Positions 7,359 to 64,000 of a stretch of DNA of 64,000 bases are shown in pieces (within the stretch, counting starts at the first letter, position 1; each line of letters begins with the position of its first letter). The stretch is from Microbotryum violaceum (Eukaryota): contig CDLV01000006.1 of NCBI GenBank assembly GCA_001244265.2, positions 310,001-374,000 on the forward strand. Reading direction: 5' to 3'. The notes beneath the pieces are model-generated. The model saw nothing but the letters and a program-made list of their open reading frames with translations. It made no database searches and was not told the origin of the DNA. The position numbers and the translations under genes are program-made.

Positions 7359-7450
7359 TCCCACGCTGCCGGGTATGATACCAGAAGCCGAAGCGGGTAT
7401 CGACGAGCACGGATATGAGCACGACCTGAAGAGTGAGCGTAGAGAGGGAG

Positions 7451-16040: not shown

Positions 16041-16363
16041 TCTGAGAGATGGTATTGGCGGGGAGCTGTGTATATCGCCTTGAGCGGTGCCGATCTCTGC
16101 GGGCTGAGCTCAGGCCCTGTCGCGAGCCAAGTTGCCCAGCGATTCGCAGAAGTGTAGTGCGAGTGTACAACAGCTCTAGGATGCTTGAGCAAGATCGTAC
16201 AACTCACGCGTGAACGTCGTACGTGCTTTGGAGTGCTAGGTAATGGGGATTGAAGGAAGAGCGTCCGCTACGAGAGCTGAATCGAGAACGAACGTCGACG
16301 GTCTTCGGGATATTGATCCAGTCCAAGCGGCCCGATCCCCGATAGAGAACGCCGAGCCCGAGG

Positions 16364-22500: not shown

Positions 22501-24810
22501 CCCGACTTGACGACGGCGTGGCGAAAGCGTCGGCGATACAATGGGTAGCCATCAGGGTGCATGCGGGTGCGGGGGTTCTGTTCGCGAGGAAAATGGCGCT
22601 TGCACCTCGGGTTACCGTACTTGTCCTTCTCCATGCAGGGCTGAGTCGAGTTTCCGCCACACTTGCCATGCAGCATGTGCCTTGTGACAGTCTCGTAGAG
22701 ATCAGGATAGCGCGAAGGATCGGGTATCTCGGCTTAGATCATCTTGTCGATCGCTTCCGTCGACAGAGGATGATCATCTGGCGCGAGGGTGATGAGGATA
22801 TGGGCATGCGGCAGGCCCCGCTTTTGGCACTCGATGTCGTGTGTATGCGTTAGAACGACGCCGAAACAGCCCGCACTTTGCTTGTTGCCAAAAACATAGT
22901 CGCAGAGTCGGTTCAGCTTCGCTTCAAACACTCGTGCGATGAGGTCCGGACGGTTGCTTGCTTGGTCGTTTGGCCCGAGTGCAGCCTTGATTTCCGGCCA
23001 GTCGGGGTTGCACGTCACCGTGATGAACAGCGAAGGCTTCCCATATTTGACGACACATGCCATCGCATCTCGGTAACGCTGCGTAACCTCCCGCGGGCTA
23101 TTCTTGAACGTCGACCCCAAATCACCGAACGTCCAATCTGATCCGGGTCAAACCGTTGTCAACGGCGTCGGTGATGCCCTGCGCCGTGGTGAGGCGCAGG
23201 GTCTCTTGATGAAAGCGGATATAGTTAAGTCGATCGGTCTCGACTTGGGAGTATCCGTCAATGACAAACTCGAGGAAGAGACGCTGGGTGGCATGTGGGC
23301 TTGAGAAGTAGTCGCCGCGTTCGTGCAAGTAGTATGCAAGATATTGAGAACGCGAGACTCGGGTTGATCCACCTCGACCCCTTTTCGTTGATGATCGTCC
23401 TAGATGTTCGAACATTCTATGTGAGTCTGTGCTTGCGTCTTAACAGAAAGGAACATATGAGAAAGAGCGGAAGACGCTTACGTTCACCATCACCATTCTC
23501 TTCGTCCCCTTCCTCGCCGTCTTCATCCTCATCGTCGCGGTCTTCGTCCTCCTGTTCGTCTTCTTCATCTGGGGACCAAGGCCGGCAAATAGCTCGCGCA
23601 ATTGGACACCATTGTCGATCTGCTCTCGGTTTCTGGCGATGGGCGGCCCAGCTTGGTGGAACCCGCAAAAAGGAATGTTGGGGTGGAAGCCATCTTGCCC
23701 TGCAGGAAATAGTAGTGGGTACCTGGGTACCGGAGAGGCAACGCAGACGGATGGAGCGAGCTGATGACTTGGTACTTGGGGCCGACCATCGGGACATCGA
23801 TCACCGTGCACCTGGAGAATACGGTCTTGAGGTCCACGATCTCCCATGTTGGTGTCGGAATCGCAGATAAGCATCGCCATTTCCGTGCTTGACGTAGGAA
23901 GGTTGTGGGTACGTCGGTCCCGGCCTGGCGGGAGGCAGAGGCGCAGGATCCGCTCTTTGGCCGTATCCCAACCTGCGCGAGCTTTGGCCGATGCGAACTC
24001 CCTCACAAAGTGATTCTTGGTACGCAACATGGACTCGAGCTTGGTCAAAGTAGATCGTTGCATGCGACTGTCTGCGCCGTCGGGTCCAAGTCGAGTGCCG
24101 GTGGCCTCGGCCGGGTCGATCAGCCATGTTTGAGCAAAGGTTGGGCGTTGAGTCACGGCAGGGATCAGGGCGCCGAGTCGATGGTAGAGGCGACCAAACA
24201 CGCGAAACACGGGGGGTCCTAGTTCCCAGTGCCGAGCCTTGCAGTGGGTGCACACGGCCGTCTGCGGGCCGAGGTCGTGGCGGATCGAAACGTGGGCTTG
24301 AGGGGTTTGAGCGCAATTCGAGCCCGGCGCACTCGCCTTTGCGGAGGTGGTGGTGGGGCGAGCCCAGCGTCGAGTTGGCCATCGCGCTGACCACGCTGTC
24401 CGTTCTGCACAGCTGCACGGCGGGCTCGTATACGTTTTGCAACACAAGATCGCTTGAATTGTTGTCATGACGCGCGGGGGGCTGATTCTGCTGATCGGCG
24501 CGGGACGAAGAGGAGGGTCGAGCCGCGGGGCGCCCAGCAGCGGGCGCTCGAGCAGGCCCATGTTACGCTATGGTACGGCGCTACCCTCGCGCCCAAGACT
24601 TGGCGAGGCTGCGATGGCCCTCCCTGGCGACCTTGGGACCGGGGCACAGTAGCGAGGGTTTGTTCTTGAGAGTGGGAGGGAGAAAGGAAAGGTTCGAGGG
24701 AGTGGCGCAGGATTATTTACGTGGTTTGTTTTGTTGTTCAGCCCCTAATGCCGCTGGTCGACTGCCGGACGGGCAATGACACGGCGGGCGCGCCGCATCA
24801 CGTGACAGTT
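19569..24810 (-). mobile_element. Helitron 1 (Rep-PIF1 helicase), frameshifted; 5' end approximate
   Basis: Rep motifs KPSLFITVTCNPDWPEI, QKRGLPHAHIL and KYLFKYVYKG. PIF1 motifs APGGTGKTF, IIWDEAPM, LCNGTRL and KAQGQSL..FTHGQLYVALSR. 3' end CTGG|T (19569-19572) preceded by an imperfect hairpin at ~19579-19595. Confidence 0.95.
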
Positions 24811-25233
24811 GTTAGCCCTCGCCCCGCGCGTCAGCCGCCAGGCGGAGCTGTGCTGTAGAAGCAATGTCATGCAAAGCCACGCGCTTGCCGTCCATTAAAT
24901 GCAAGTGTAAGGATTGTTTGACGTCAATAAAAAAAGAAAGAAAATACTGGGAACGCTGTAGCTTCGTTCGACCGGCACGAAAAATAGAAAAGTCGGCACA
25001 GCGCTGGTACATGGCTTCTGATCGGAACATGGACACCACAGGCAGGTGCGGCAGACACAACAGTATGCTGGTACATCCACCACAGGCGGCCCGGAGGGCC
25101 GCAACCCACTCAAAAATAGCGATCGCAGGTACATTCCTTAACTCACCTTTTTCTTATCCTTTATCCAACTATCTATTACATAGATTTACATTCATGCTAC
25201 CTATGATTAATCAAGCGCCCTTTTATTCCATTT

Positions 25234-35899: not shown

Positions 35900-38411
35900 A
35901 AGTATCGGCGCCTGCCAACCAGTTGGCGGATAGGAGCTACCGTACGTAGGACCAAAGACGAGCCTGCCCGTCGGGAACAACTTGTGCTTGAGGCCAGAGA
36001 GTACATATTAGGGTAGAGTGGAGCAATCAGCGGGGTCAAGGCCACTATAAGTCGCGACACCAGAGCCGCCTGAGCCGACATAGCCAAAGTCAAGGCAAGA
36101 AGCAGGGAGCGGAATGACTGGCGAACAGTCAACCATCGACAAGTCCGTCGACGCAGACCCTTCAAGCCACTCGCAAGCTTCTCGTGTCCCCGCATTCGCG
36201 ATTTAAAAAAAAATAACAACCTCGACGTATGGCTCGATCACGTTCGCTTCACCGTCGACAGGCGTCAGTGGTAGCTCTCCTTTCCCAAGCAGTACCCATC
36301 TGCTAAATGCAAGGACGACGATGAACTCGATCGAGCTCATGATGCGGTACACAGGGCAATGCATCAAACCTGTTCAGAAAGTGTGGCGCATCTCCTGGTC
36401 AGCTGCTACGACATGACACCGGAGCAGACGGTGGAATACCTTCGAAAGCACCTCGGTCGGTCTTCCCTTCGCGGCATTATCACGCAAATCGGAAAGTTGT
36501 TCTCGGTCGGACCGCCACCAGCACAGGAAGACGATTATCTTCCTTGGGCCGGATCCATCACTCGCCTCACAACTGACCTACGGGCTCACAAGTTGACGTT
36601 CGATCAAGTGGTTGCATGCCACCTCATTGCGATTGTGAGGGCTCGACGACCGTCGTATCTGGATGAGTTCGATTCCAAAGGCGTCGATGCGATGCCAACT
36701 GTCGACACAGTGATCGCAGCAGATCGAGCTCCAGCAAACTTGAGACAAGATACTGGGAACGCTGCGACGGCGTTGTTGGCCACGACTGGTGCCCAACCGA
36801 AGCCGAAGAAGAAGAAGTTTCCACGACGCGAGACGACCAAAGGCGAGGAACCGATGGCGAATTGGCGCTCCCTTCGGTTGAAGACATTCTGGGGACCGAT
36901 TCCGTTGGCGCGTTCTTCACGCAATTACCAAAGGGACACTCTCGAGAAGTGATCCTCTACGACACGGCAGCAACTCATCACGTCAGCAATGATCCTGCCG
37001 CGTTCGCTGACCTGAAGGCGACAGCTCCGTCTTCGTTGAAGGGCATCAATGGTGACGGAAAGACCATTATGGGAGTAGGCACGGCCTGCGTCGAAGACGA
37101 GAACGGCAAGAGGTACAAACTGGTCAACAGCATCTTCGCAACTAGCGCCCCCGCCAATCTCTTCGCCGGGCATCGAGCTGATCGTGATAGTCGCAAGATC
37201 ACCATTCAAAACGGGCGATTCACGGTGGCGGGAAATGACAACATCCTACTTACGGGACAGAAGCTCAATTCGGGGTTGTACCGTCTGGACCTCAAGTTGG
37301 TTCAAGCTCGAAGTGCACCCCTTGATTGTGCGTCAGCCACAGCTCTGACAGCAGTGCCTCTCCACATCTGGCACGGACGTTTCGCTCATCTACTCTGCCG
37401 TTCCCTTCACCAGCTGTCCAAGTCTCACGCTGTGATAGGTTTGAACATGAAGTCTCGCAGTGACTTAAAATGCGAATCGTGTCTGGCCGGCAAAGCTACG
37501 CACAAGCCGTTCCCAAACTCCGAATCGCTAGCCGGAAAACCCTTCGATCTCGTCCACATCGGTCTATTGTCCTTCGACGGCGAGCTGTCACTTGCAAATC
37601 ATCGCTACGTGCTAGTTATCGTCGACGATTGTACGCGGTACATGTGGGTGTTGACGATGCCGCGGGAGTCGGACTCCTTCGAAAGGTTCAAAACGTGGAA
37701 ACTACGGGTCGAGCTGTCGTCAGGGCACACTTTGAAATGATTCGTTGGTTGGATACGTGGGATACTCGGATTCAGACTGGGGTTCCTGCATCAACACGTC
37801 CCGATCTATAATGGGGCATGTCTTTAAGCTGGCTGACGGGCCAATTTCTTGGAGTTCTCGGATCCAGAGCCGAGTGGTGACGTCGTCAACGGAAGCGGAA
37901 TACATCGGCCTTACTCATGCGTCTCGAGAGTGTCAGCTCTTGCGAAATTTGCTCGCGGAATTGGGAATCACGATTTGGGGGCCGATCAAGGTGCAATAGC
38001 TCTCACAAAGAATCCAGTGTTCCACGATCGAACTAAGCACCTACACCTGACGGAGCATTTCGTCCGAGAAGGGGTACGAGAAGGTGACATCGTTGTTAAC
38101 TATCTTCCAACCGCAGAGATGCTTGCCGACATGTTTACGAAGGCGTTGACGAGACCGGCACTAGAGAAGCATAGGGCGGCCATAGGAATGGGAATCATGT
38201 AGGCCTCAGAGCGAGGGGGGGTGTTGAATTGACACTTGAGGAGTACACTCTGCAGACTACATGAGCGCGAGCGCGCGCGGGCTTTCTCTTAGCTTCCTTC
38301 TGATTCGAGCGTTCTAACGTATTGAACCACTTCGAATCAGGTCAGTAGTACTCACGGTATCATTGCAATAGTTAACTGAGCGCTCTAACGTATTGAACCA
38401 CCTCGAATCAG
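35900..38411 (+). mobile_element. Ty1/Copia LTR retrotransposon remnant with internal deletion; 5' LTR not seen
   Basis: gag-like ORF 36359-36952, protease ILYDTAATHH, WHGRFAH..CESC zinc finger, integrase start YVLVIVDDCTRY and RNase H VGYSDSDW..SSTEAEY..LADMFTKAL. Polypurine tract GAGCGAGGGGGG then TGTTG LTR start at 38222. Confidence 0.93.
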
Positions 38412-46230: not shown

Positions 46231-48168
46231 TGAAACACACGTTTCGCCATCGAGGCGCATTTGCAGATTTTGACATTTTCCCGTGAGTCGGCCCAATTTT
46301 GGCCTACCCTGAGCAGCCTACGGCATGACTTTGGGCCCGATTGCCCTCGCTTCGAGACGCGTTTCGCGATGCTTGCGCTTGAGCAAGCCACTTAGTACTA
46401 GCCATCTTTGGTAATCACTTGAGTTAAGTGGCTGTAAGGGATTAGGCCGATTAGATATTGAAAGGGCGCGGGTTCCGTTCCGCTTCACTTCGGTCCGAGA
46501 TTGGAGCATAGCACGACAACATCATCCCATGCAGGCCTATATTTGAACGATGCCTTCGATTGATTATCGCCGCTCACCAACATGAACATGATGATCGCCG
46601 AGCTCCTCGCCTTTCAATGTCGCTTCCGCCGACGCGTCTCTTCACATCGAGTTGCCCAAAGACAAGCACACCCAGTACTCGACCTTGTCATCTACTCGAG
46701 GCCGTTGAGAAGGCAAACAGCTTCTCACGACCAATCGTGCGTCTACCAAGCTCAACTATCGAAATTTTAGTCTAAGCTCGCGCGTGTTCGGTTCTACACA
46801 GCCCACACACTTGAAACTTCAACTGCGCCTCAAGTTGTCGATGCTCGTGATACCCATTTCTCGCTGAACTGGCCAACCTGATTGCCCATCAAGCTGCTCA
46901 TAAGTGTAGCCACCTCAAGCTGTTCTACTCAAGGGAGGCCGGTGGAATCGAGCGACCCAACTCGCGGAGAGGCAGGCGTAGGGATTAGCAATACAAAGGA
47001 AGGACGCAGTATAGCACATTCATGCGTCTTGAAAGGATTGGTACAGTCCATGGGACCATCTCGCTGCGAAGACATGACGGGCACGACAAGGAGCTTTTGC
47101 TGGACTGGAGGTGACCAGATGACCCGAGCACTCACAACACACGAGGATTCAGACGAATGTCTATACTGAGGATGGCCGCATTCAAGTGAGTTGGCGCTGA
47201 ATTTAGGAGCGAAGGCAACTGGATCTAATGTTTGGAGAAACAAGCAGACGGAGCGCTAGCACAACGCTATCCTCATTTTGGATCGCTTGACGGCGGAGCT
47301 GTAACCACTACCACAACATCGGAGCTCGGATCTCTGGTCTGCTTTGGCCTCAAGCGTGGCATGCATTCACTCAGCTGCGATCAAACCGCCTACGGAGAAG
47401 AAGCGCTATCTATTGGAATTGGTACGATGCCTTGAATGGCAGTTGAGCTATGACGTTCTCACTTGACACGGGTCTTGTCTGCTACAGTGCGATACATATA
47501 CAGCAAAGTGACAACAGCGCGCTTGCGTCGTTGTTTGTACTTTCAAATATCGTCGTACAGGAGCTTCGCCTCATCAAGAAAGCTTGCTCTTCCATTCACC
47601 TCATTGATGGCACTATGCCGTTCCGCATGATTGATGGTCGACAGGTCATCGAGGCATTAGGCCCGCCAAAGATCACATATAGTTCAACCATGGACCTGAC
47701 CTCACTTTACCCCGACGAGCGCATAATCAGCACGAGCGCAAATGCCGAGCAAAGATCTGCCCCCCTTCGGAGCGTGCCCGGCCTGCGAGATGCCGCCGGC
47801 AGAACCTCTACAAGCCGCAAATGCCACGGCGGATACAAAAAGCTCAAGTTCAGCAAACCACTTCGGACAATGAAGTAGCGAGCCTGCCAGCCAAGCAAGG
47901 AAGGCTTGTTTGATGCCTGGAGCCACGCGCGACACCAGCCGAAGCGACGCGCGCCGCAAGCCACTTTCGATTGGCTGCCGCGCGCCCGCAAACGCTCGGA
48001 ACGCGTTTTAGAGGACTTTTACGCGTTTTTTGGAGCATGTAGAACACATTTTGATAATATTCCGAGGCGCATGTGAAATTTTGACATTCTGGGGCCAAAA
48101 TAGGGCAAAAAACTTTGACAAAAAGGCCAAAAAGGGCGTTTTTCCACATGCGCCTCTGGCTGGGCTTC
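46231..48168 (+). mobile_element. Deleted derivative of the Ulp1 TIR element, copy C
   Basis: Aligns to ~16472-16960, then ~18104-19568. Ends GCGCCTCTGGCTGGGCTTC, the inverted form of the family terminus. Confidence 0.9.
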
Positions 48169-49540
48169 AGGACCCATGAAAGCCCAGCCAGAGGCGCGTA
48201 GGTAAAATCCGGGAAAATCGCCGATTTTGGACCTCATTTGTCCACCATTTTTTGGAATTTTCGCCCAAAAAAGTCCCCAAAATGTCCAGTCCATCTACGC
48301 GCCTCAAAAAATAGCTCTAGATTCGCTTCAAATGTTCTAAAACATCTTCAAAAATCACGAAAACGCCGTCCGGACGTTTTTCGCTCGGGCCGAATCGCCG
48401 GAGCCCGCGCGCGCTCTTCAGCCGTGTCGGTTCTGCTTCGCCGAGGGCTCCCCACCTGCACTTACTGCCTGCCTCTTTGCCTATGATTTAACGTGGCCAT
48501 AGTATACATGTAACGAACCACGAGAGGTAAGATCGATTGCAGTCACTCTGCGAAGCAGTAAGCTAGCTACAGTGATATCTACGAACCCCCAGGTTCATTG
48601 AGGGGGTAATTGCTCCTCAATGAGCAGTGACGGCATCACCTCCAGAGCTCTAACGAAGGGACGTTGATCTTCGATGCCGACACGCGAATAACTACACCAA
48701 CTCTTGGCTACTGAGAACAACTGAACGCATGCGCTCAGCGTGATCTATATGCCGCCAGATTCAACGTCGAAAGGCAGCCGATAATGATAGACTGGTGGCC
48801 TTGCCTACGTGCCGCAAGGATTGCTCCACGATCTTCAACTTGTCCCTCAAAGCATCGAGCGGCTTAGCAAGGGATTCAAACTCGAGAGGCTCGTCTGTCG
48901 ACCATGAAAGCTGTTTAAGCTGAATCCGGGTGCATTGGCTGGTTTGTCAAAGCTGGAGGCGAAAAGCTCAGACACCCTCACGTCCAAGAGGGGTGCCATT
49001 CGCTCAAAATCATCGTCTGAAAGAGATCGATATCCGGACCTCTACGTTTCGTCAAAGCAAGCCGTGCCGAGAATGTAGGATATTGGCGATGATGGCACAG
49101 ACGACGTCGACGCGACGTGGCGGGGAAGGCAAGAGACGCGCGCACTCGAACGTTCGAACGCCTCGTTCAACCAGCAAAGAGGTCATTTTTCATGAAAACG
49201 GACGGTTAAAAGCAAGTTGATCAGAACAATTGTAGATTTGTAAGAATAAATGCTGGAAGTGCAAAATAACCATCAATTAGAGCCGTTGTTGTGAATTCGG
49301 TACAGCCCGGAATGTTTCGCGCGCGCTCCCGCGGCTCTTGAGCGTCGGCAAACTTTGGCTTTCCAAGCCGAACGTGGCCGAAATGGGTCCCGATTTGTCC
49401 ACTGAAACCTACGAGCCTAGGACCCCACCCACACCGGCGCACCATGATTGTCCACCCCGACTACGCGCCTTGGCGATTTTGGCCCATCTGAGGCCCAAAA
49501 TTTGTCCAGTCGGGCGCTACGCGCCTCAGGCCGGGCTTTC
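48169..49540. mobile_element. Non-coding ~1.4-kb element with the same TIR family, copy D
   Basis: Left end AGGACCCATGAAAGCCCAGCCAGAGGCGCGTAG; right end CTACGCGCCTCAGGCCGGGCTTTC. Repeated TGTCCA..CTACGCGCC motifs near both ends. Confidence 0.65.
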
Positions 49541-49929
49541 GGTAAGCTCGACTAAGCCCTCCCTCTGGGAGGGGCTTACGAGTTATCGGCGCGCTTAGCC
49601 CAGTTGCCCTCCGAAATTTCAGGGCCATTTTGGGGTGGTTCTCTGTAACTTGGCAAGTACGCGCATTCATGCAAAAGTGAGGGATCCTATTTTTCTTTGT
49701 GCTCTAAAATTGACATACCCCAAGTGGTGAGATTTTTCATAAGCTGTGGGTGGAGCTACAACGATCCGAAGTCTGCGATTTCGGTCGATCGGGCCTCAGA
49801 TGGTCCGAGCGCATCTTGTAATTGGCGCTCGAATCATCGGCGAGCCTGCTCCGTTCGGCTTGATCCCCTTGCGTACGCTTCGCTGTTCTCCTCTTTTCAC
49901 GAGGATCGTCGGCCACGTCAAGCGCGACA

Positions 49930-50838
49930 ATATCTGAAACCAAGAATGACGCGAACAAGCAGATGCCATACCTCATCAACTTGCCAGAACAACCGCCGCG
50001 AGGCGGATCCGTATTCGCTGAATTTTGTAGCCGCGATCTCTCGCTATGTCAATACCTGTCGTGGTATTTCAGCCCATCCACACGATTTGAAGGCGTTAAA
50101 ACACACCTACCAAAGCTGTTCAACAGCAACAGGTCCAGCCTTAAGCCTGTACTTGATCTCATTCTACGACTTGCACGCGAGGATGGCGCAGAGTCAAGAA
50201 CTTGAAGCCGACTCAATCAATGACTGGATCGCCGAGCAGGTGGACAACACTTCGTACTTCTCGGAGTGATTTACCGGATCCAATAAAGCTACTGAATACT
50301 TGCCTTATTCGCCTGCAGGCCGACTCAATCATCATTAACGAGATGAAGCGTGAGTGTTTCTGACCCTAGCTCGGCTGGGTATCGCAGCGAACTGACACCA
50401 AAAATCAACACGCTGGCCGCAGCTTTACCGCAGTGTCATGGGTCAGATCGCATTCGCTTGCAACCGAAGAAACAACTCCATGCAGCATCGCAACGGTCTC
50501 GTGACTCTCGCATGTGGAGCGAACGACAGACTGACAACATTTCTGTACGATTGCGGCTTGACGACATCTCGCTTGGCGACTCTCCAGGCAGCTGCGAGCT
50601 TGACGAAGGCGAATTGAAGGAGAGTGGCTCGAACAAGTACTTCCATGTTACAGTTGACAACGTTGAAGTCACACATCACGTCAACGATCAGCAATTGGAT
50701 CGACGAACCGAGCTGCTTCATGGAACTTTTGGTTACGCCCACATTCAGAACGGAGATATTGCCGGCGCTTACAACCTTCGAGCCTACTCTGCACATCAAG
50801 CATCTTTACCGCGAGTAATCTCCAGCATCTTCTCCTAA
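49930..50838 (+). pseudogene. N-terminal fragment of a DUF6589-like putative transposase
   Basis: FHVTVDNVEVTHHVNDQQLDRRTELLHGTFGY resembles the DN..x..Q......GT pattern recalled for DUF6589 proteins; truncated. Confidence 0.4.
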
Positions 50839-50859
50839 CTCCCCAATCCGACTCGTCAT

Positions 50860-51800
50860 TTACAACTGGGCTCAAAGTTCAGATATATCGAGCGCTTGCT
50901 CGACTGGTTCCTCCTCTTGGCCTCAGTCTTCGCGGTCCTCGATGCACACCACCCCCTGTCCTCGTCATAGACGGGCAACTTGACGCGCTCTCGAAAGGAC
51001 TCGTTAGAGATCAACTTTGCCCAATCTGGATTGTTGATATGCATTTCAAGAGACTCCACACGCAGCAAACAAGAAGGCAAATCAACACATGTGTGCTTCA
51101 CTCAAACAGGAGGTCAACCGGCACATACGATCAGAATGAAGGAGATCGTGGGATTGGGGTCGTCCAACTGCCTGTACAGCTCGCCGTCTCTCCAGGTCTC
51201 CTCAGATACCAAAACCACTTTCTTTCCCTTTCGATTGAAATTGGCAGCTTGAAAGAAGCAGGTGACTGCGGAAGTCAGCACGGATGTCGGTCCAGCAAGC
51301 CCAGTCGACAGAAAAACTCACCGGATGATTGCTCAGTGCATATAGTGGACTGACAACAATGCTGACGGCCCGGCGTCCATAAATGAGATACAATGCTTCG
51401 AAAATAACACTTTTGCCTAAACTTGTTGGCGCTGTGACAAACACAGCGTCATATCGATCCCGGTTCCCAAATTGGTCGAGTTTAGAAAGTACAGCAATGA
51501 CCTCGATCTGCACGGGCCGGGGGTACGTCCTCCGAGTCGTCAAGACTTTCGCCCAGAATAACTTTGACCTTCGTGCGTCATTCGCTGGAATCTCGTCGGT
51601 CCTCCTGAGTCAAACGTGGCCTTCAGTGACCGAGAACGAGCCGGCCGGCAGGAAGGTCGGTTGTCGGATTGGTTGAATGACTCGGTGCTGGGGTCGTAGG
51701 ACTGGCCCTTGAAGCTGATCGCAAGGGAGGCGCCCTGAACTCAATTGATGGATGTCGACCGGGCGGTCTCCTAACCGGCCTGGGTGTTTGTACCGACATG
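50860..51800 (-). pseudogene. N-terminal fragment of a RecQ-like DEAD/H helicase
   Basis: PRPVQIE (Q motif), AVFVTAPTSLGKS (Walker A-like), IVVSPLYAL (motif Ia) and FRERVKLPVYDE (truncated Walker B). Confidence 0.75.
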
Positions 51801-52337
51801 GCTCATCATGAGGGGGGGTGTGATGTTGAGTGGAGGAGAGAGAGGATGCGTGAGGCGCGGCCGGGCTTAAGTGACCTGGATCTATGCAGCCTTCGACGCG
51901 GACCGGACTACGACTGCGTGCGCCGACCTGCGTCTCGTTCGGAATCAGTCAGTTGATTCAAGCTGCTGTAGCGAGATGGTCAAGTGTTCCTAGACTTCAA
52001 GCTTCGATGAAGCCTCATCAATAATGCTGAATTAAAGACGTATCCCTCCAGTTTTCAGATAGCACCAATATATGCCATGCTACAGCAAGGGGGCACTTTT
52101 CAGGGCCAAAATTTCGGAGGGCAACTGGGCCAAGCGCGCCGATAACTCACAAGCCCCAGAGGGAGGGGCGTCGAGCTTACCTGTGTGCTAGGGCTCTTGT
52201 GGGCTCCTGCCTGCTTCTGCCAGCTCCGGCCTGCTGCCTCCTGTCTCCTGCTGCAGGCTCCAGCGATCCAGCGCTTGGCTTGATTGGCTGGCTATTAATC
52301 CAATGCTGATCCAGGCGCGGGGGAGCTCGGCGGGAGT

Positions 52338-52397
52338 CGCATTCGTTCCGCGCCGGCGCATTCGTTCCGGCGCATTCGTTCCGGCGCATTCGTTCCG
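52338..52397. repeat. About 4 copies of GCGCATTCGTTCCG upstream of DDB1
   Basis: Direct reading of the sequence. Confidence 0.9.
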
Positions 52398-52706
52398 GAA
52401 TCGCATCATTAGCTCGGTGCCACCAGCGGAGGAAAAAGGCACTCGAGTCTGTTTTGAAGACAACGGACATGTAGGGTCTGCTTCCAAATAAGAGACTCTG
52501 ACAGAAATAAAACCCTACGGAAATGATCAGGGACACCGATCCAAACATATTCGCCGCAGCAGATTCTGACCTTTCTGGTGGTTGAGTCCGGCGTGGTAGG
52601 GAAAGTTTGTGGTGAGCCGAGCTAGCGGAGGCTGAGCGCTGCCAGCTGAGCCCCACTTGGGCCGTGCTCCGCCTGTGCAGTCTGACTCGGTGAGACGAGG
52701 CGGACC

Positions 52707-55700
52707 ATGTTGTACGTCGCATCGATCCAGCGAGCGACGGCGCAACTCGATGCGATCAAAGCAGACTGGATCCAGACCAATGTCGATTGTCTGCTAGTCA
52801 GGTCAGTTCCTCCTCTCCACGTGGTCGTACGGCGCGGTCGATCGGGTGCTGACGATCGACCGGCTGCACCGCGCGCTGACACCCTGCATCGACACCACCC
52901 CTCTGCCACAGCAAACTGAACCGAATACAAGTCACCAAAATTGACTTGGATGGCACCGACTCGGACGGGGTGCTGCATTCGTCGTTCGACGTGCAGTTGG
53001 ACGCGACGATTGCTGCGATCGCCACCGTCAAACTCGCCGTACGTCGCACCATCGTCGCCGTTGAGGCCGATGTGCAAAGTGCAGAGCGATCATTGCTGAC
53101 GAGCAGAGCCTTTGTCTCCTCCCGTATCTTTCCGGGGCCATACTGGACCCCTTTGCGCTTTCACCACGCGTGGCCTTCCTCCCCACCCCGCACTTTTTTT
53201 TTGGCATCGCCAGATTGACAAACCGTCAAGTTTGATCGTCCTGACTACCTCGCATCAGCTCTTCACTCTTGAATACGCTTCCAAGACACCTCAGCACCCC
53301 GTCACAACCTCATCTGTTTCAATCCAAGAGCGTTTCGCCACTCGCGCCGAGCTTCAACGAATCGTCGTTGACCCCGATCGTCGTCTTATCCTCGTGCATG
53401 CCTACAATGGACAACTGCGCGTGATTCCGCTCATGTCAGCGGGGGGAAAGTCGACCAGTGGGACCACCAAGAACCGAAGGTTCAGCAAGGTCGACTTCCC
53501 GGACGCGCCGCTTACAGCCGACTTGGCCCTCGATCTCTCGCGAAGCTATAATCTGCGACTCGATGCGTTGAATGTTCGCTCGATCGTCATGCTCCCAAGT
53601 GCGATAAACAGCATCTCATCACCTACTATCGTGGTGTTGCATTCTGATGCGCACGGCCAGCAGACCGTCGCGTTGTTTCAAGTCGATCTCGAGGAGAAAG
53701 AACTTGAACCGGGCCCCGAGACGGAAGTGGAGGATGCAGGTGCCGAGACGCTTATCCCGCACGGCCACCAAGGCGTACTCGTAGTAGGCGAACAAAGTAT
53801 CGAGTGGGTTTCTCAGATGCCGTTTGATGTACGAGGCAAGGGGAAAGCCAAGGAAGTGGGTAGCAGCCCCAAACGAATTACCAAATGTGCACTGCCTGTC
53901 GGCAATGTCAAAGCGTGAGTCCGACAAACGATGTCTCGGTGGTGCGTGCTTACCCACCACTATTCTTGGCTTCTTGCAAACAGTTGGACTTTGCTTCCTG
54001 GTCAGAAAGGCCAATACCTGCTCGGTGACATATATGGCAAGCTGCTGCGACTCGATGTTCGTGGCGATTCTGCTGGTCGAGTGCAGTCCTTGCTTACGCG
54101 CGACCTCGGAGATGTAAGTGTCTAGTGTGCTCTGAACCACATTATTCCTGTTACTGAGCCAGATGTCCACTTTCCAAAAGGCCTCCTCGCCGACCGCCCT
54201 CGTCTGCCTCGCCGATGAGGTCATATACCTCGCTTCACGCTTCGGAGATTCCCAGCTGATCCGCTTGCTGCCTTCAAGTCCGAATAACGAGCTGGAGCTC
54301 GTCGCAAGCTACCCGAGTCTGGCGCCTATCACGGATAGCTGTGTCGTGCGTGGTCAAAGCGGCGCATCGAGTCATCTCGTTACCTGTTCAGGAGCATACA
54401 AAGGAGGAAGCTTGAGAGTTGTTCGTCAAGGCGCCGGTGTAAGTGATGCGTGCGGTGAAGTCAAGGTGTCCTGTCATGAAATCACAAAGCAGTCCCTGAT
54501 CTTTCTGATGGTCATCTACATACTCAACTCGTGCAGCTGGTGGAAATGGCAGATCTTGCGCTCGAGAATGTGCAACGCATGTGGGCAGTCAAAAATGATG
54601 CCGGGTTAGTCTTCGATCGAGGTCATTCAGCAGAGTGAGACGACAACTCAGACTGATGCCGTCATATGGTCGATACTGTTTCAAGTGCCTATGGTGGGCT
54701 GCTGGTGATGTCGTTCTTTGACGAGACGCAGATTTTAGACCCCGACCAATCGAGGACCGGTGATGGGGACGAAGGTATCTCCGAGGTTCAAATCCCTGGC
54801 ATACGCTCGGACGTACAGACATTGCTTGCCCATACGTCGGGCAACCATCTCGTTCAGGTCACAGCATCTGAAGTTGTTTCTGTTTCGGCAGAGGTCACAT
54901 CTACGGCTCCTACGAAAGCCGAGTGGCGACCTGCACATGGACTGCAGATCACCCTCGCCGAAGCCGATGGCAACTATGTTTTGCTTGCTCTACAAGGGGG
55001 CGAGATCGAGCTTTTGGATGTATGCGAAGGACAGGTTTCGCATGTGGCATCCCTCAAGCTTGCGAGCGATGTTGCCGCCATCTCGCTCGCTCGACTTGGT
55101 ACTCGATCGGTGGCTGTCGTTGCGTTGTGGTCGTCCAACCTAGTCCAATTGATTGATCTGCCGACCATGGGGGAAATGTCCTCCCACATGATGGCTGGCG
55201 GCTATCTCGTGCGATCCCTCTTGCTCGCAACTTTCGCCGACAGTGTGGCACACCTTTTCGTTGGTCTTGGAGACGGTAGCCTTGTCAGCTTCATCATCAA
55301 CTCCACCGATGCCACTTTTGAAGTCGAATCTCAAAAGTCCGCCCGACTCGGGACCAAGCCAGTGACGATGACTCAAATAATCGGCGATGATGCTGCCACC
55401 ACTAGCGTTCTTGTGTCAAGTGACCGTGTAACAGCTATCTCCAGGCAAAGTGATCGTCTCAGCTACTCGAGTGTTAACCTCAAGGTGAGTTCAGTTGTGT
55501 CACCGAGCTGGGCTACCAGCTGTGATGCTCACCCACTTTCCCTTCGTCGTGGCCGCTCTCTCAGGGCATCACTGCCATGGTACAGCTACACTCGTCGCTA
55601 TATCCTGGCGCGATTGCTTTCGCAAGCCCTTCTGAAGTGCGCCTCGGACGAATCGAGTCGGTCCAGCATGTCGACATCCGTCCGATCTCGCTTGAAGAGG

Positions 55701-57210
55701 ATGAGCCCCGCAAGATTGTGCACAGCGTGCGAGCGCGCTCGTTCGGCGTCGCTTGCTTGCGGAGAGACGTCGATCGAGTTACAGGGCGCCAAAAATCTTC
55801 CTCGAGCTTCAAGGTGCTCCATGACGAGACTTTCGAAGGTAGACACTTTGCCTGAGCGCATTCGGGTATAAACCGACTTGCTGATGCTCTCAGTGCGATT
55901 CTTCCTTTCTTTCTGTCTCATGCAGTGCTTGCCTCAATATCTCTACACCCCGACGAGGAAGCACAAAGTCTCGCCGTCCTTGATGATGGCGAAAATGATC
56001 GGACGTGCTTCATTCTCGGAACGGCTTTGATCCGTGCCGCAGAGACAGAGCCGAGCTCGGGCCGTGTCCTGTTGATCTCGCGGGACGCTGCGACCGACTC
56101 GGGCTACTCGATCGCTGCGGAGGTGTCCGTCTCTGGGTCGACGTACTCGCTCGCTGCTATGGACTCCCTCACCTTTGTAGCGGCGATCAACTCCTCTGTC
56201 AGTTTGCCTCAGTTCGCTGCTCACCCGGGAAAGCGCCTGATTTGCTCGCCTTCTCAACTTGCGCACAATTACAATTAGGTCACTGTATACGGTGTCGGTC
56301 AAGATTGGCAAGCCATCCAGCCCATAGCGACGTGGGGTGGTGCCTTCGTGGCGTTCTCCCTCGTCTCCCTCGCCAAAGACCAAATCCTGGTTGGCGACGC
56401 TCTTCGATCTCTTACTCTGCTTCAGCTCGAAAGGAATTCGCAGAACGGTTCCGCTGGGTCTTCCCGACTCGTCGAAGTTGCTCGAGACTATTCGCCACAT
56501 TACGTAACGGCTTTCGCCCCGGTGTCGCCTACTTCGAAAGAATTTGTTGGCGCAGAAAGCGATCTCAATCTGTTCACGGTCGCAAAGGATCAAACGCACA
56601 ACTCTCGAACCAGTCAAGCCGAGATCGAGTTGGTCGACCAGGGGAGATTCCACCTAGGTGAACTGGTGACGAGTTTCAACTCTGGTGAGTGGCAAATCGG
56701 GCACATGTGCACTATATTCCTCGTACACTCGGGGCTGACCAAAACGCTTTTTTAGGCGCGCTGGTCCACCAATTCGACGAGGCCCTCGCCGGCGTGGCTA
56801 CACCTCGCCTTGTATTTACGACCTCGGCCGGCTCGGTCGGCGCGATCCTGGACATCGGTACCGAGACATCGAAAGTCCTTTCGGAGCTGGAGCGCAACAT
56901 GCGACGCGTCATGGACAGCGTAGGCGAACTGCGCCAAGAAGAGTCAGTGCATTCCTTGATGCCAGAGTCAACGCGAGCCGCTTCAGCTGACGTTTCACTT
57001 TTGGAACCCCGAAGCTGGCGCGCATTCCGATCCGAACGTCAGGTCGCCACTTCGGCCGGCTTCATTGACGGTGACTTTATCGAGCGTTTCCTCACGGTCT
57101 CCACAAGCCAAGTGGAGCGGATCATGGCCGGTGGGAATGAGCACGAGCGAATCACGATGACCAGCGACGAGCTGATGAGGATCGTAGAAGGCATGTCGAG
57201 GCTGCATTGA
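52707..57210 (+). CDS. DDB1: DNA damage-binding protein 1 (CUL4 adaptor), multi-exon
   Basis: MLYVASIQRAT start; YLLGDIYGKL, YLASRFGDSQL, LVTCSGAYKGGSLRVVR, ILVGDALRS, VARDY, FHLGELV and FIDGDFIERFL. C-terminus VEGMSRLH*. Confidence 0.92.
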
Positions 57211-57420: not shown

Positions 57421-60400
57421 TCATTTCCAATTGAACGAATCAGAACCCTTGCTCAGGTTGTTGCCGGATATGGCTGAAGAGGCGGAAGATTGAACATTCC
57501 GGGGTTCGACGAGAAGGGATTGTCGGTCTGTGTACACCAAAAGCGCTGAAATTCAGCCAGTGATTACTTGGTGGCAGGTCCGAGGGGAGCACAAACTCAC
57601 ACAGACTGGCGGCGTCGCCACCGTGAGTGAGGTCATTCAGTGCCCGGGTAAGCAGTGTCTGCAGCTCGGGCACCATGAAAAAATTGTAGGGGACTTGGAA
57701 CCGCTGCAGGTCGCCCACAATTCGGCTCATTTTCTGTGGAAGCAAGCTCAATGCATCAGCCATCAGCTCGGGCGAAAGTGCGGTCGACCTGGAATCGGAT
57801 TCACTTGAAAGCGGTCAAAATTGATCAAGCGAAGCGATGGGTCCACAGGGGAAGGTCGGAAAGGTGGATTTCCTTCGGAGCACATAGTGATGTCGGTCCT
57901 GAGAGCGTCAAAAAAGCTGTACTCGTAAGCGAAGTGATGAAGGAACCGCTGGCCCGAGTTCACGTACAAGAACAGTCCCACGAATGGCAGGCAAGGAGGT
58001 ACAGCCTGTCGGACGGTAGCACGATACTCTGCATAGTTCCTTGCGTGGTCCGTTGCCTTCCGCAATTGGTCGAGCAGGACGCGATACTTGGGGGCGAGCG
58101 CATCCCAGGTGCGCCGGAGACGTGCTACGGTCGATGAATTAAGCGCGCACAAGACCGCAAAAAGAGTGTTGTAGTTCTTGATTTGAAAACATCTCTGGGG
58201 AAACGACAACTTGGCTATCAATGGCTGCTTCATTTGCGCTTTCGCTGCATTGACCGAAGTATGTTATCAAAACTCACATCTGCCACCTTTACGAAATATT
58301 TGAGCAATGTGGTACGTTTCTTGGATTCGCTTTCGTTGACAATCGTTTCCGTGATCCATCCCGTCAATTTGGTGCTCATCGTCGACATTTGTCGAATAAA
58401 GCCGTCGGGCTTGGCGAAGTCGCCACTCAAGAGCTCCTCTACTCCAATGCAGGAGTAAACCCGCGACTCGAGGATGGTTATCTGCCTCGTCAACTCCAGC
58501 GGATCGACATCAACGATCGAAAAAGTTTGCGCGTTCACAGCCATAAACTTGATAGAGTTCAATAGCGACTTATTCACGATGGGCGAAGGGGCGCCCGCGA
58601 GCGCTTGTTGAGGCAAGGGCCCAACTCCTCCGGGTGTGCTCGAACGCACAACATCCGTCCCTCGCTCCCGTTTGTTGAGCAGCTCCATCAGCCGGGCCGA
58701 CGGGTTGGACATGGCTTTGGCTAAGCGCGTCTGACAGAAGAGTCGCAACGGCTCCAAGACAATGAGATCTTGGTCGACTTTCCAGTACGACTCGACCCAC
58801 GTCTTCAGGAAATTATAGACACGCAGCCGAACAGGAATGAGCTTCTTCGAGTTCCACAACTTGAGCTGGGTCTCGTCGAGACCCTGCGGGGCGGCGATGT
58901 CGAACCGCGCGAACAAGGCTTGAACAAGCTGAGGTGGCGAAGTAAACATACGGAAGGTGAGGAAGAACGTGTTTGAAAACAGCGGATCAATAGTTGTGTC
59001 ATGCAAGGTCATTCGCTCGACAAGGCAGCGCAAGGTACCGCCTGTGACGCGACCATCGGCGTTAAAAGAGATTTCGCGCGCCTCGTAGTTTCGCTCGAGG
59101 AACCATAGGGTTGTCGACTGGTCCGAGCTCGACTTTCCCGAGGAGCTATGGACGGAAATCCGGCTGCTACCGCCCAAGCCCAGCGACATTGGCGCGAAGG
59201 ATTCGATTGAGGCTCCAGCCTTGGCCAAGGTGGAAGAGGGTTCAGTGTGTGCGGTGCTAGTCGAGGATCGAGGTGAGCTGTCGTTTGTCGAGACGGTGGA
59301 GACTCCGGACCTCGAAGACGCGCATGACTGGGAAGTGCGACTCGAGTCGCCGCGAACCATGGGCGGACTCCCTGCCCCCATTCCAGCGGCTGCCAAGTAG
59401 GTTTCACCGGCTTGTTGTGGACCCCGGCGGCCTACAAGATCCTTTGAGGTGACAGTCTCATCACCCGAAGAAGCACTTTCCTTCCTTGCCCGCCCCTGAG
59501 CAATACCACCAACCGTGAGCCCCGAAAAATGGGCTTCTACGTGCTCGCCATCACGCCCATATGCCACAGTCTCATCCTCTTCTTCCACCGAGAATCTCTC
59601 CAAAGTTCCGGTCACAGTTTGTGAATCGTATTGCCCCGTCAAGCAGCTCAAACTTGTAGCCTTTCGTCCCAGCATGCTGAGCGTGTGCGGCCCTCTACGA
59701 CCAACAAATTCCGGCCGTCGGGTTGCTCCGTCATCTGGGCCTGTGGGCGGAGTCAGAGTGGTGGGGCTGGAAAGAGCGGTCGGCGAGGTCGGCGGTGGAT
59801 TTCCGATTAGGAGAGTGAAGTTTGGCTCTCCGGCGTATCCAACGCAAAGTCTGACCGCGCTTACGGTGTCACCTCCCGCGCGCAGCACGGCCGTGGCGGC
59901 TTGCAACAAGTCTTTTCGCTCCTCGTCCTCTCGGGATATCGCCAAAATCTTCGCGGATGTGGCTTTGGCGGGAACCGAAGAGGCGACTCGAGCAGCAGTA
60001 ACCAATGCGGTCGTGGCAACATAGAGCCGATCTCGACATGCGGCCAAATTGTCAACTTCGGCTTTCAGCCCATTCGATGAAGCGGAGGACTCGTCCGATT
60101 TGACGGTCAAGAGAGTCGGGTGCTGGGTGACAGCTTCGACGATGAGCAAGATGGATCGGATGTGCTCAATGATCTCGCGGGTCATGTCGATCAGGCGAGC
60201 GAAGCTAGCGGCAGGTGCAGATCGACTGTGCGCATGGACGTGCCCAATGAGCGCGGCGATTGTCGAGAGGAGTATATCGTGGATCTTGGATAAGATGGAT
60301 GCCAGCTCGTTGCCGTTGTGGACTACTTGGACCGTCGAGCTGGGTGATTGTACGTCCGAATCTGTCGGACTCGTTTCGATGTTCAAGAATGACTGTCCTG

Positions 60401-61795
60401 TGGATGGAAAGTCCTTGATGGGCGAGAGTTGTAAGGGAGTCGGCGGTTGCACCGCTCTGTGTGCCTTCAGATCTCCATTGCTTCTCGCGATACGCAGTGT
60501 CGACAGCGGCGCCGACTTGGCCACCCTCATCGGATGGGCTTCGAGGAGGTTCGAAGCGCTTAGGGGTGGCGTAATCATATGCGGGGAGCCTCTACGATCG
60601 TCGACCAGGCGTTCGGTAGGAATCAGGGGCAACCCCTGCACTCTCGCCTCATCGAGGAAGTTGTCGACCTGCTTGGCGACCTGCCGAGCCACGTCGAGCA
60701 TGACCTGCGCGTCAAGGGACGACTGTTCGATCGTTGTAGAGGGCGACGAGGCCCTGCGAGCTTGGTTGACAAGACTGGCCAAGGAGGCCAGGATCTTCTT
60801 GCGGCATGTAGCGAGGGCCGACGAGCATTTCAAGAAAGGCGACTCGCGCGTGAGGCAATCGGACGAGGCAAGCACTGTGCGCACAGATGAAATCACACTG
60901 GGAGTGACATGCATACATATCATACGTGTCAGAAAAGTCTGAGGGACGAGACACTCAAAACACCTGACTCAAGGCCAGCTCACCATGCTGTCGTCGGTTG
61001 GTAGTGAGGCACTCTCTGAGCGTTGACAGCAGCTTGCACCAGGGTGACCGCATTCTGCACTTCTGCGACGAGCGTTTGAGATTCGCGTTCAAATGCGGTC
61101 GCGCGTTGTTCCAGTTTCGGAGAGGTGCATGTTGTAAAACCTGCTATCGGTTCGGTTGTCGCGACCGTATCGAGCGTGCTCCCCCGCTCAGGGAACGCGG
61201 TCGTCGCAGAGCCGCGGGGCCCGAGATCTTCGCGGGAGCCGAGACCTTCGCGGGAGCCGGAGTTCCGGTGGCCGAATGCTACCGAGGAGTGAGAGCGTGA
61301 CCCATAGGCGACAGACTGTTCTCCCTTTGGTGGAAGTTTGGGCGTGCTCTGTAGGAGACAACAAAGGTAAGCACATTGTTTTGCGCACTTGGCGACGTGC
61401 GCTGTCGGTGTCGCTCCAAGTTCGAGCCCATATCCACACGAGGTCACAGCGCGCACGGCGATGGCTGGTGATGGCTGGGCAAGGATCGAGAGACTCACGC
61501 GCCGGTCGACAGTGGCAGGCGATGCGACTGCCGTGGACGAAATCGTATTGGGAGCGATTTGAACCTGAACATAGTTGCTTGGGAACCAGCCGCGTGTGCC
61601 TCTGAGCTCGCCGTCCCACCAACCGGACTGGTCCTTGCCGAAGATGCGGATCACCTCGCCCTTGGAGAACGCGAGACAAGTCGACGGCTGTTGTGGCGAG
61701 AAGTCGTGCAGCGCACGGCAGTATTCAGCAGGGCTGCTTGAGGCAACCGTCGAGGGTGAACCTGCCCGTGCAGTTGCCTGCTCCATCGCGGACAT
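57421..61795 (-). CDS. CDC25-type Ras guanine nucleotide exchange factor (SH3, REM, RasGEF)
   Basis: SH3 CRALHDF..SGWWDG..RGWFPSNYV; REM GGTLRCLVERMT..FFLTFRMF; GEF ELTRQITILE, NYNTLFAV..ALNSSTVARL, PCLPFVGLFL and LINFDRF. Ends ...FNWK*. Confidence 0.93.
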
Positions 61796-64000
61796 CCCGA
61801 CTAGCAGTTGCAGCGAGTGCAGGGCTGGCTTTCACTTCGGACACCCGGGGACGGGAGACAGACGCAACAAGCCGTCGCGTCCGGCGTGCGCGGGCAGAGG
61901 CGGCCGGGGCCTGCCGGGGCAGGCGCATGAGGGCGCGGGCGCAAGCTGTTAGGCCTGCCTCGCGGCCCCAAGCGACCGTCCGCTAATGAACTCGGCCAAC
62001 GCGCCGATCGGATACTACGCGCGGCGCGGTCATGAGCAACTGTTAAAATCAGGCTTCTCATTTTGTTCCCTGATCGGGTGCCCCTTGGCCTAGCCAGTGT
62101 GCTTTAATGCATCTCCTCCGACATTTCCAGTGACTCATAGGCCCTAATACAATTAGACTGTTATTGAAATTTATCAGATAAAAGAAACCGAAAAAACCTG
62201 CTGTGGCTGGCGCCGAGGGCCGCTTACCTCGCCAGGTAGACTCGTCAAAACAGAGTCGAACCCTGGGCCACTTATCAACTGTGGGCCTCCTGTGCAAATC
62301 TGTGGCGGACAGCTACCTTGTCCTTCACCACAGGTTCCACAGGTTATCTGTCAGGTCAAGCTGAGGCTTGCAAAGTGCACTGAGCGGTTTGCGAATCGAA
62401 ACAGGGGTGCAGACCGAGCACGAGAATCGCCAACTGCATGAGTCTATCAAGCACATCCGTCCCACGACTTTGTCCAGTAGTGGTGGATATGAAGAGGTCA
62501 ATTTGCCTCCAGTTTGAAGACATCCTCGCCCTTCTTGCGCAATAGTTCGACCAGTTCCCGGTTGTCTGAAAACATGACTTTGTGGATATCACCTTCCAGT
62601 CGATACCAAGCCTAGCCCAGAGTACTATGAACTCGAATTTCAAATCCGTGGTGCATGCGCATCTTGATATGTACACTCAAAAAAAATCACGAAAAGGGTT
62701 CACGAGGGAGGCTCAATGTAGGAGTTGGATCTGGCTAGGCTAAACAAGGAGCAGTCGCCTGCCACTTAGCACCGCCAGCGTAAGAGTTCCGATGTGAAAC
62801 CAATTCAAAAGCAACAGAAAAGAAAAGGGGACCTTGTCGACCGAGGTGGAGATGGCTTGAAGACCGTGTGCAACTAGAGGTTAATGCGTACACTAGAAGT
62901 AAGCTACCTGGTACCATAGGATTAGGGTACATGCTACATGCTACTCACTGATGTTAGGGGTAACGTGAGGTCTTCGATCCGAGCAGGTGAGATCGGTCGA
63001 CTCGGTGACGCAGTGGAGGCTACTGTGTGGAGAGTGTAGGCGAGGATCGAATCGTCAGCCCCGTCTCGCCCGTCGTCAAGGGCCGGCGAGCAAGATCGAT
63101 CCATCGATCAATCAAGGGTCAAAGCAAAGACTCACGGGGTACGATCAAATGCAAGCGGTCTTGTGGACCAGGAACAACCTCAGTGACATGCCGTAGGCGC
63201 CATTCAACACTCGTCGACGAGTGGATAGGCTGATGGCAAGCCGTGACGCAGCGAGAGACGGCAAGGTCGGAGGCAGTGGCGAGGTGGGAAGCGAGAGATC
63301 GCAGTGAGAGGGGAGAGGGGAGAGGGGAGAGGTGGTGTGGGGTAAGATGATGGAGGTGGGATGGTGAGAGATGGACGCGAGACGGGTAAACACGAAACGA
63401 GTCTGTCCGACCCTACGCCACACGAACACGATCACAGCTAGGTGGTTACTCACACTTTTAACGGTGGGAGGGATCGAACGACAGACTCTACCACATCACA
63501 AAGGCCACCGTTTCGTATCCTCCTGAAAAGGGGGGCGATGTCGGCAAGATTAAGTGGTGCGAGAAGTGCAGAGCGCGTCGACGAGGAGAAGGAAGGAGAA
63601 AGAGAGAGGCGACGAGCTCGAGGTGGTTGCTGACTTGGGTGCGGGGTGTGCGCTTGGCAGAATGAGTCATCTCATCGATATGACGCCACGCTGTGACTTC
63701 AAGCTTTCGATTTTCTCCACCTCTGCCGAGCGCGGCCGAGAGCGGCCGAGAGCGCCGAAGATCTTAACGGACAGGGGACCGTGCGCCCCACATCGAGGCC
63801 AACGATCCACCCCTCGGAAAGTCGGAGTTGTCTCAGCCGATCCAATGAAATTATAGTTGGACCGGACAAATGTCGCTTCCACGATGGCAGCTCCGAGGAG
63901 TACCCATTCGGCACCTACCAGGTACCTACCTGATACCTAGTGCTTGAATCAAGGGCCTAGACACTTGCGTAACTAGGGCCTACCTACCGGTAGCAAAGAA

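Follow-up and report, generated by a model that had tools for sequence, protein, structure and literature searches.

What kind of DNA transposon pairs a helicase with a protein family of unknown function is the question raised by a short element in the genome of the fungus Microbotryum violaceum. The window, i.e., the whole stretch of DNA that was analysed, comprises 64,000 nucleotides (assembly GCA_001244265.2, contig CDLV01000006.1, positions 310,001 to 374,000 of the forward strand). The element occupies positions 49541-52181 of the window (2641 bp), where imperfect terminal inverted repeats (TIRs) enclose the remnants of two convergent genes, one related to the Pfam family DUF6589 and the other to helicases. 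In a preliminary description of this locus, it was proposed that the parent element pairs a DUF6589-type transposase with a RecQ-like helicase between TIRs, and that no standard TIR superfamily fits this arrangement. The pairing is supported by its recurrence at 10 of 13 loci elsewhere, and the fold predicted for DUF6589 proteins is that of DDE transposases. The claim of novelty fails, since the architecture is that of AcademH, the helicase-bearing group of the Academ superfamily, and three catalytic motifs match Academ. Very likely, the element derives by deletion from a DNA transposon of the AcademH type and is itself dead and non-autonomous.

The element, its two gene stubs and its copies

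The left TIR (49541-49619, + strand) and the right TIR (52109-52181, - strand) were paired by self-blastn, in which the left repeat aligns with 52181-52109 over 79 columns with 86% identity (E 1.7e-19). This bears out the TIRs of about 75 bp described before, and a repeat search delimits a core of 49 nt that is 94% complementary. No second copy was found when the element was compared with the 64-kb window by self-blastn. Part of the stretch is contained in 21 of 22 public runs (three coded organisms), and the contigs of four of these runs (X1, X9, X11 and X16) were compared with the window over 48900-52900. Contigs of X1 and X9 that cover the left flank part from the window sequence at 49542, which places the left end of the element there. 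At the right TIR, where contig edges lie in X1 and X16, single-copy contigs of both runs start at 52150 and enter unique DNA without mismatches. If these contigs are unitigs that share about 30 letters, as a 31-letter word would suggest, the repeat ends at about 52180. In X1, depth drops beyond 52250 from thousands to about 230.

The two stubs within the TIRs are convergent and each keeps its 5' part, as had been proposed, with start codons at 49946 on the + strand and at 51799 on the - strand. The + strand stub (49946-50960) is a pseudogene of the DUF6589 family and was mapped by tblastn with P0013, a protein of 811 aa from Microbotryum silenes-dioicae that is 84-91% identical over the parts kept in the window and appears intact, with all three putative catalytic residues present. 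Residues 1-79 of P0013 align at 49946-50257 and residues 172-366 at 50396-50972, no counterpart of residues 80-171 exists in the stub, and frame shifts are located near 50614 and 50817. The stub retains the motif of the first catalytic Asp (VDNVEV, ~50650-50676) and has lost the second Asp and the Glu. A 73-aa open reading frame (ORF) within it (50396-50617) is 73-96% identical to 38 Microbotryum protein clusters, all of which are from M. saponariae, M. silenes-dioicae or M. lychnidis-dioicae, and six of which carry a precomputed match to DUF6589 (PF20231).

The - strand stub (50961-51799), likewise a pseudogene, was mapped with the proteins P0001-P0004, which align from 51799 down to ~50961, and corresponds to a RecQ-like superfamily 2 (SF2) helicase from its N-terminus to the DE of motif II. 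It begins with MSVQTPRPVR at 51799, is composed of exon-like blocks at 51799-~51322, 51248-~51129 and ~51074-50961, and contains a frameshift near 51610-51640. The + strand reading (...RCTPPPV) stops at 50960, the - strand reading ...VYDE is encoded by 50961-50972 in reverse complement, and the - strand residues past VYDE (DRGW...) are mere antisense of the + strand gene (PPPV). From both end readings, the junction of the internal deletion is located at 50960/50961, ~100 bp further to the right than the 50840-50860 at which the stubs had been thought to meet. Of the single central deletion postulated in the preliminary description, the internal deletion stands; a single clean event does not, as residues 80-171 are gone and there are several frameshifts.

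The same junction is found in other copies. The junction peptide VYDEDRGWCA is also present in P0002 from M. silenes-dioicae, a gene model in which the helicase stub is followed by antisense sequence from the 5' region of DUF6589. A 346-bp contig of X9 (organism B), with a depth of 150.7 against 28.6 for the unique flank, covers 50888-51233 without gaps. The presence of the junction in another species and in multi-copy contigs indicates that the deletion derivative itself has been amplified. Other deletion forms are also observed: in the gene models P0029 and P0035, DUF6589 sequence is followed by antisense sequence from the 5' region of the helicase gene, and further joints are present in X16 (49847>51917 and 50296>51011). 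Several independent deletion forms point to a linkage of the two genes within Microbotryum. As the deleted form has no complete frame for either gene, its movement would require a transposase supplied in trans.

Amplification is also seen in the summed contig depth, which is not a copy number and in which areas without listed contigs are no proof of absence. The depth over the element compared with that of the unique right flank is 2,600-17,000 versus ~230 in X1, 150-1,750 versus 28.6 in X9, 26-234 versus 6.6 in X11, and 5,400-25,000 versus ~239 in X16. This amounts to ~10-70 times the unique right flank in four of four runs, with the TIR bins at the top. The TIR is, by contig depth, the mark of a multi-copy family, and its restriction to this locus, which the preliminary description had named as a refuting case, does not apply. 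These data also bear on the idea that no mobile element is present at all and that two decayed host gene fragments lie within a local inverted duplication. The idea would account for a single copy in the window, for two broken frames and for the lack of a target site duplication (TSD), and yet it is hardly credible. The excess in depth is found in all four runs and falls at the TIR edge, the identical junction recurs in the gene model of another species and in multi-copy contigs, the 38 clusters are paralogous and spread across three Microbotryum species, and the same TIR-bounded two-gene design is present in unrelated contigs, as described below.

DUF6589 proteins and their helicase partner

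None of the ORFs of the window matches Pfam DUF6589 at the gathering cutoff of 27 bits, which can be explained by the fact that only ~50 of the modelled residues are kept (317 to ~366). P0013 itself matches PF20231 with an E-value of 1.2e-60 (205.8 bits, residues 317-684). The resemblance to DUF6589 noted earlier is therefore confirmed through close homologues and not for the window fragment itself. A HMMER search with P0013 resulted in 480 representatives at E<=1e-3, 204 of them at E<=1e-10, and the closest relatives outside Microbotryum in this representative library are ~30-40% identical. Among the best 150 of the 480 matches, 28 long relatives were scanned against Pfam, and all 28 score DUF6589 and no other notable domain. 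No XPG or helicase fusion was found among these 28, and a fusion of the AcademX type is thus not seen; GTP-binding, BED or THAP modules were not detected in them either. DUF6589-like clusters in the Atlas are from Basidiomycota, Mucoromycota, Mollusca, Cnidaria and Chordata, and one mollusc cluster has a PHD domain in 14% of its members.

In an alignment of 27 relatives (A1), the conserved positions include DNI (D261), GD.GT (D416), H451, D591 and Y615, as well as D657-x3-E661-x2-N664-x3-K668 (P0013 numbering). Based on this conservation, D261, D416 and E661 are the candidate catalytic triad. The AlphaFold (AF2) model of P0013 (pLDDT 76.1, pTM 0.75) has a core of the order beta1-beta2-beta3-alpha-beta4-alpha-beta5-alpha, with strands at 256-267, 279-290, 371-374, 411-415 and 443-447, followed by an all-helical insertion (~477-650) and a helix (656-674) that bears E661. 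The predicted architecture combines an RNase H-like core and an insertion domain. A Foldseek search of the PDB placed Hermes first (probability 0.98, E 1.2e-3), followed by the P element, ISCth4 and RAG1, with TM scores that are low across the whole 811-residue model. In VIA-align, rows 1-37 contain DDE transposases only: two entries of the P element (Z 10.0, root-mean-square deviation (rmsd) 10.7 over 360 aligned residues, and Z 9.9, rmsd 6.6 over 353), Hermes (Z 9.4), ISCth4 (Z 7.7), Tn5 (Z 7.6), RAG1 (Z 6.5) and Transib (Z 6.3). Middling Z-scores are common in VIA-align, and the weight lies in the uniformity of the list and in the coverage of residues 185-700. Judged from the modelled fold, a DDE architecture of the RNase H type, DUF6589 is very probably the transposase. 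In P0013, the Pfam model covers residues from 317 onward only, past the strand that carries D261, so that the first catalytic Asp and the N-terminal helical region lie outside PF20231.

The - strand stub shows motif Q, motif I as TSLGKS, motif Ia as SPLYAL and, of motif II, the DE. The statement that the RecQ motifs are clear was too strong for the window, where Pfam DEAD is reached with an E-value of 0.009 (below the cutoff), against 3.2e-5 for the relative P0001, and where PDB searches favor Ski2 (0.016) over RecQ5 (0.26). With NCBIfam, P0001 matches DpdF (6.6e-4) and recQ_fam (0.0089), and the window stub matches recQ at 0.28. A profile of five stubs (A3) found only Ski2 in PDB (0.05), and a PDB search with P0003 gave nothing informative. 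When the Microbotryum stubs were compared by hhalign with the helicases linked to DUF6589 genes elsewhere, a probability of 88% (E 2.9e-6) was obtained for 90 columns that extend from motif 0 to Ib. The later part of motif II (DEAH..W..FR), Helicase_C and the Zn-binding Cys cluster are deleted in the window and exist in the linked helicases of its relatives. A search with the 135-aa stub matched only four stubs, P0003 residues 60-461 had no match among longer proteins, and an Atlas search with the helicase stub returned generic DEAD fragments only. The C-termini of P0001 and P0003 have a common Cys-rich stretch after a GMHGDRPR-like segment, which by eye is similar to the Zn-binding region present in the linked RecQ-like helicases and has no Pfam support.

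The pairing of the two genes in other organisms was assessed in metagenome contigs, which were scanned with five DUF6589 proteins (A2) and resulted in 20 loci with 128 ORFs of at least 130 aa. Of these ORFs, 66 were run against Pfam, and the helicase ORFs were compared with all 20 loci by tblastn. At 10 of the 13 loci with at least 1.4 kb downstream, on unrelated contigs, a helicase gene on the opposite strand is convergent with the DUF6589 gene. It was recognized by Pfam DEAD and Helicase_C in L001, L002, L005, L006, L017, L018 and L020, and by tblastn in L003, L016 and L019. No helicase was found in L010, in L004, which has an FBPase gene downstream, or in L015, which has an APH-like ORF downstream. 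The helicase of L001 matches WRN (1e-38), bacterial RecQ (1e-37) and BLM (2e-30), as well as RECQ1, RECQ5 and RECQ4, with eIF4A as the next family at 3e-14 only, and that of L020 matches the RecQ family in 37 of 37 cases. Aligned with each other, the linked helicases have the motif ...DECHLV.QWG..FR... and Cys-rich stretches at their C-termini. Judged by these sequence comparisons, the helicases beside DUF6589 genes clearly belong to the RecQ family.

TIRs surround both genes in three of these loci. In L006 (1-123 and 5575-5697), they are 123 nt long and 100% complementary, and in L002 (1-137 and 5599-5735), they are 137 nt long and 97% complementary, each on a contig of 5.7 kb; in L018 (1103-1145 and 10358-10400), they are 43 nt long with 86% and lie 9.3 kb apart. 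None convincing was found in L017, L020 or L005. The adjacency of DUF6589 and RecQ elsewhere, which had been suggested as a check on the preliminary description, is thus observed at 10 of 13 loci and within TIRs in three. L016 (800-2853) looks like an independent internal-deletion derivative of a design like that in the window, in which a truncated DUF6589 gene meets the N-terminal half of a helicase at ~1969-2056. Near the gene ends in L018 and L017, arrays of ~11-bp motifs (GAACTCCTGAG-like) followed by a CCAAT-like box are present in both orientations (L018: 2268-2316, 4310-4357, 5675-5720 and 9426-9579; L017: 6815-7126, 9269-9321 and 12880-13045). These arrays may be promoter or transposase-binding repeats.

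Assignment to AcademH

In PMC10045372, AcademH is described as Academ with a helicase and TSDs of 9-10 bp, and AcademX as having TSDs of 3-4 bp, a difference that is associated with the helicase in the former and the nuclease in the latter. The RNase H domain of Academ had no Pfam match at the time of Muszewska et al. 2017 (PMC5751038), and a hidden Markov model (HMM) of it, RNase_H_Academ, is given in Supplementary File 1 of that paper. States 1-40, 169-194 and 450-465 of the HMM were compared by eye with the DUF6589 motifs. At the first Asp, q-f-D-N-w-D-i of the HMM (states 1-7) corresponds to DNID / YDNINI of DUF6589; at the second Asp, v-v-l-t-g-d-q-p-l (states 186-194) corresponds to IIAGDQ[ML]T; and at the Glu, D-e-a-l-E-q-l-i-v-r-d-l-K (states 450-462) corresponds to D.YLE..N...K. 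In this comparison by eye, the motifs match the consensus at all three catalytic positions with the order kept, and the spacing is 188 and 263 states in the HMM versus 145-155 and 241-245 residues in DUF6589. The three motif matches, combined with the design of a transposase and a helicase gene, indicate AcademH and not an unclassified superfamily.

The distribution described for Academ can be set beside that of DUF6589. In PMC5751038, seven fungal Academ families are listed in Repbase, all from Puccinia graminis (Table 1), and fungal Academ abundance peaks in Pucciniomycotina, the subphylum of Microbotryum. Basidiomycota, Ascomycota and Mucoromycota contain AcademH in low copy numbers (PMC10799480), and Academ has expanded in bivalves, where the elements are 5565 bp long on average (PMC10294476). 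In the literature searched, DUF6589 is nowhere identified as the Academ transposase and Microbotryum is nowhere said to have Academ; DUF6589 itself is mentioned there without a function. Academ is absent from the main text of a study of transposable elements (TEs) in Microbotryum (PMC10502011), and DUF6589, PF20231 and Academ are absent from the supplements of PMC10799480.

Several observations weigh against the AcademH assignment. The assignment to Academ itself is based on three motifs, which were compared by eye with 4 of the ~19 parts that make up the HMM text, together with distribution and architecture. The distance from the Glu to the Lys is +7 in DUF6589 and +8 in the Academ HMM consensus, and the second-Asp motif of P0013 is CDGGT rather than GDQ. 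The window stub alone is not statistically supported as RecQ, with Ski2 slightly better. No full-length helicase of the Microbotryum stub family was found in protein databases, so that the helicase of the Microbotryum parent is deduced from stubs. The 10-bp flanks of the element are identical at only two of ten positions, in line with the earlier remark that a TSD is not evident, and neither a displaced TSD upstream of the repeat adjoining the left TIR nor a displaced copy of either flank nearby was found. In L018, the only metagenome element that is complete and extends into flanking DNA on both sides, the flanks are identical at 6 of 10 positions; the remaining complete relatives (L006 and L002) stop at the contig ends. 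The missing TSD in the window may be due to the left flank itself being another repeat. A short repeat of 204 bp (49336-49539, no strand assigned), located outside the element, adjoins the left TIR and was recognized from contigs of X11 (612 bp) and X16 (501 bp) that match 49336-49539 only, at ~87%, with unlike sequence on both sides. The depth of the left flank (48900-49540) is 10-36 times that of the unique right flank.

Alternatively, as in the preliminary description, a DUF6589 transposase and a RecQ helicase could define a separate superfamily, whose likeness to Academ would consist of generic DDE motifs. The consensus letters were matched by eye, no TSD of 9-10 bp is seen in the window or in L018, DUF6589 has no function in the literature searched, and Academ is not mentioned in the main text of PMC10502011. 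A separate superfamily of this kind is nonetheless quite unlikely, as DN.D, GDQ and D...E...K all match, in the right order and with similar spacing, the taxonomic range (rich in Pucciniomycotina, with bivalves and a mollusc PHD fusion) fits Academ, and the element length and the separate helicase gene fit AcademH. A broader alternative, in which the DUF6589/RecQ elements are either a lineage that transposes unlike AcademH, with no or an atypical TSD, or a separate superfamily that is convergently Academ-like, is unlikely. The modest reading, at the level of annotation, is that DUF6589 is the Academ DDE transposase and that its Pfam model omits the first catalytic Asp.

KolobokH, another fungal TIR lineage with a RecQ helicase, has also been considered. 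The P element and Kolobok have been grouped by a common signature, with C/DxxH between the second Asp and the Glu (PMC9587614), and the P element transposase is the best structural match of the DUF6589 model. An element of the KolobokH type is still very improbable here. In the window as in the 10 loci, the helicase has a gene of its own, which lies on the other strand, converges with the transposase gene and is not located downstream of the transposase domain. C/DxxH is not present, the position -3 from H451 being G in A1 (GxxH) or Q in A2 (QLFH), and no THAP or other non-DUF6589 domain is present in 28 of 28 long relatives. Kolobok targets TTAA, and the flanks of the window element and of L018 are without it.

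Parent element, surroundings and known systems

An AcademH-type parent of the window element would be ~6-7 kb long, by analogy with the complete relatives of 5.7 kb. Its TIRs would surround two convergent genes, an Academ DDE transposase, the C-terminal two thirds of which would correspond to Pfam DUF6589, and a RecQ-like SF2 helicase. As judged from fold and family, the transposase would bind the TIRs and cut and paste the element, using a predicted active site of the RNase H fold (DN.D ... GD ... D...E) that is accompanied by a large helical insertion. In PMC10045372, the helicase is tied to the unusually long target duplications of 9-10 bp in AcademH. Through the internal deletion, the transposase gene of the window copy lost its 3' two thirds and the helicase gene all that follows motif II, and further deletions and frameshifts came afterwards, leaving a copy that could be moved only with transposase from other copies.

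The element is located at the border of a TE-rich stretch and unique genes. Directly to its right, at 52330-52400, tandem units of ~14 bp (GCATTCGTTCCGGC-like) are present upstream of a host gene of the RSE1/DDB1/CPSF1 type (53100-55871, + strand), which encodes a double beta-propeller protein (Pfam E 1.4e-20 and 3.2e-56), and a RasGEF/SH3 host gene of the Cdc25 type follows on the - strand (58230-61831). To the left, repeated motifs of the gaaat/aaaattt type occur in the wider flank (48900-49540, including 49336-49539). TE remnants are located further to the left: an ORF for a Ulp1-type peptidase C48 (17180-18010), a Helitron-like fragment of a helicase with a Pif1 2B domain (19884-20597) and a Copia-type ORF with gag-pre-integrase and Pol beta-barrel (36667-37740). 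Dispersed repeats of 85-86% identity, unrelated to the element, connect 47520-48123 with 18982-19568 and 47620-47943 with 45280-44952.

With the AcademH assignment, DUF6589, a Pfam family of unknown function, would gain a role as the RNase H-fold DDE transposase of Academ type, and its pairing with a RecQ-like helicase is a conserved, TIR-bounded module of two genes across unrelated contigs. Dozens of Microbotryum gene models annotated as 'hypothetical protein' in M. silenes-dioicae, M. saponariae and M. lychnidis-dioicae are fragments of one TIR transposon family, which could receive its own name among the elements that published TE surveys lump together as 'TIR'. No new mechanism is opened by these results, the point of interest being the part that the helicase plays in AcademH transposition.

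The Microbotryum element fits as a further member of the published Academ/AcademH design. As in AcademH (Kojima 2020, Mob DNA 11:15, as cited in later papers), a DDE transposase and a separate helicase are bounded by TIRs in elements of several kb, found in fungi (Basidiomycota and Mucoromycota) and animals; the window copy differs in being internally deleted and in having flanks in which no 9-10-bp TSD is seen (2 of 10 positions). In animals, Kojima reportedly described in 2020 an AcademH sublineage with a PHD finger, with remnants in fish. The Academ families of Puccinia graminis, six of which are said in the same work to encode a helicase, are from the same subphylum, Pucciniomycotina, and were compared by description. 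KolobokH is likewise a fungal TIR transposon with a RecQ helicase, whereas the window element has two convergent genes and no C/DxxH. The P element, Hermes (hAT) and RAG1/Transib also have an RNase H-fold DDE core with a large helical insertion before the catalytic Glu, and they differ in that identity is 8-12% without a match at the sequence level, the likeness being in the fold only. At the level of the single copy, the closest parallel drawn is with Ds of Ac, a non-autonomous internal-deletion derivative. In both, the TIRs and subterminal regions are kept, the interior is deleted and the copy is spread in trans, and the Microbotryum element differs in having a two-gene parent and a deletion that fused the 5' parts of convergent genes.

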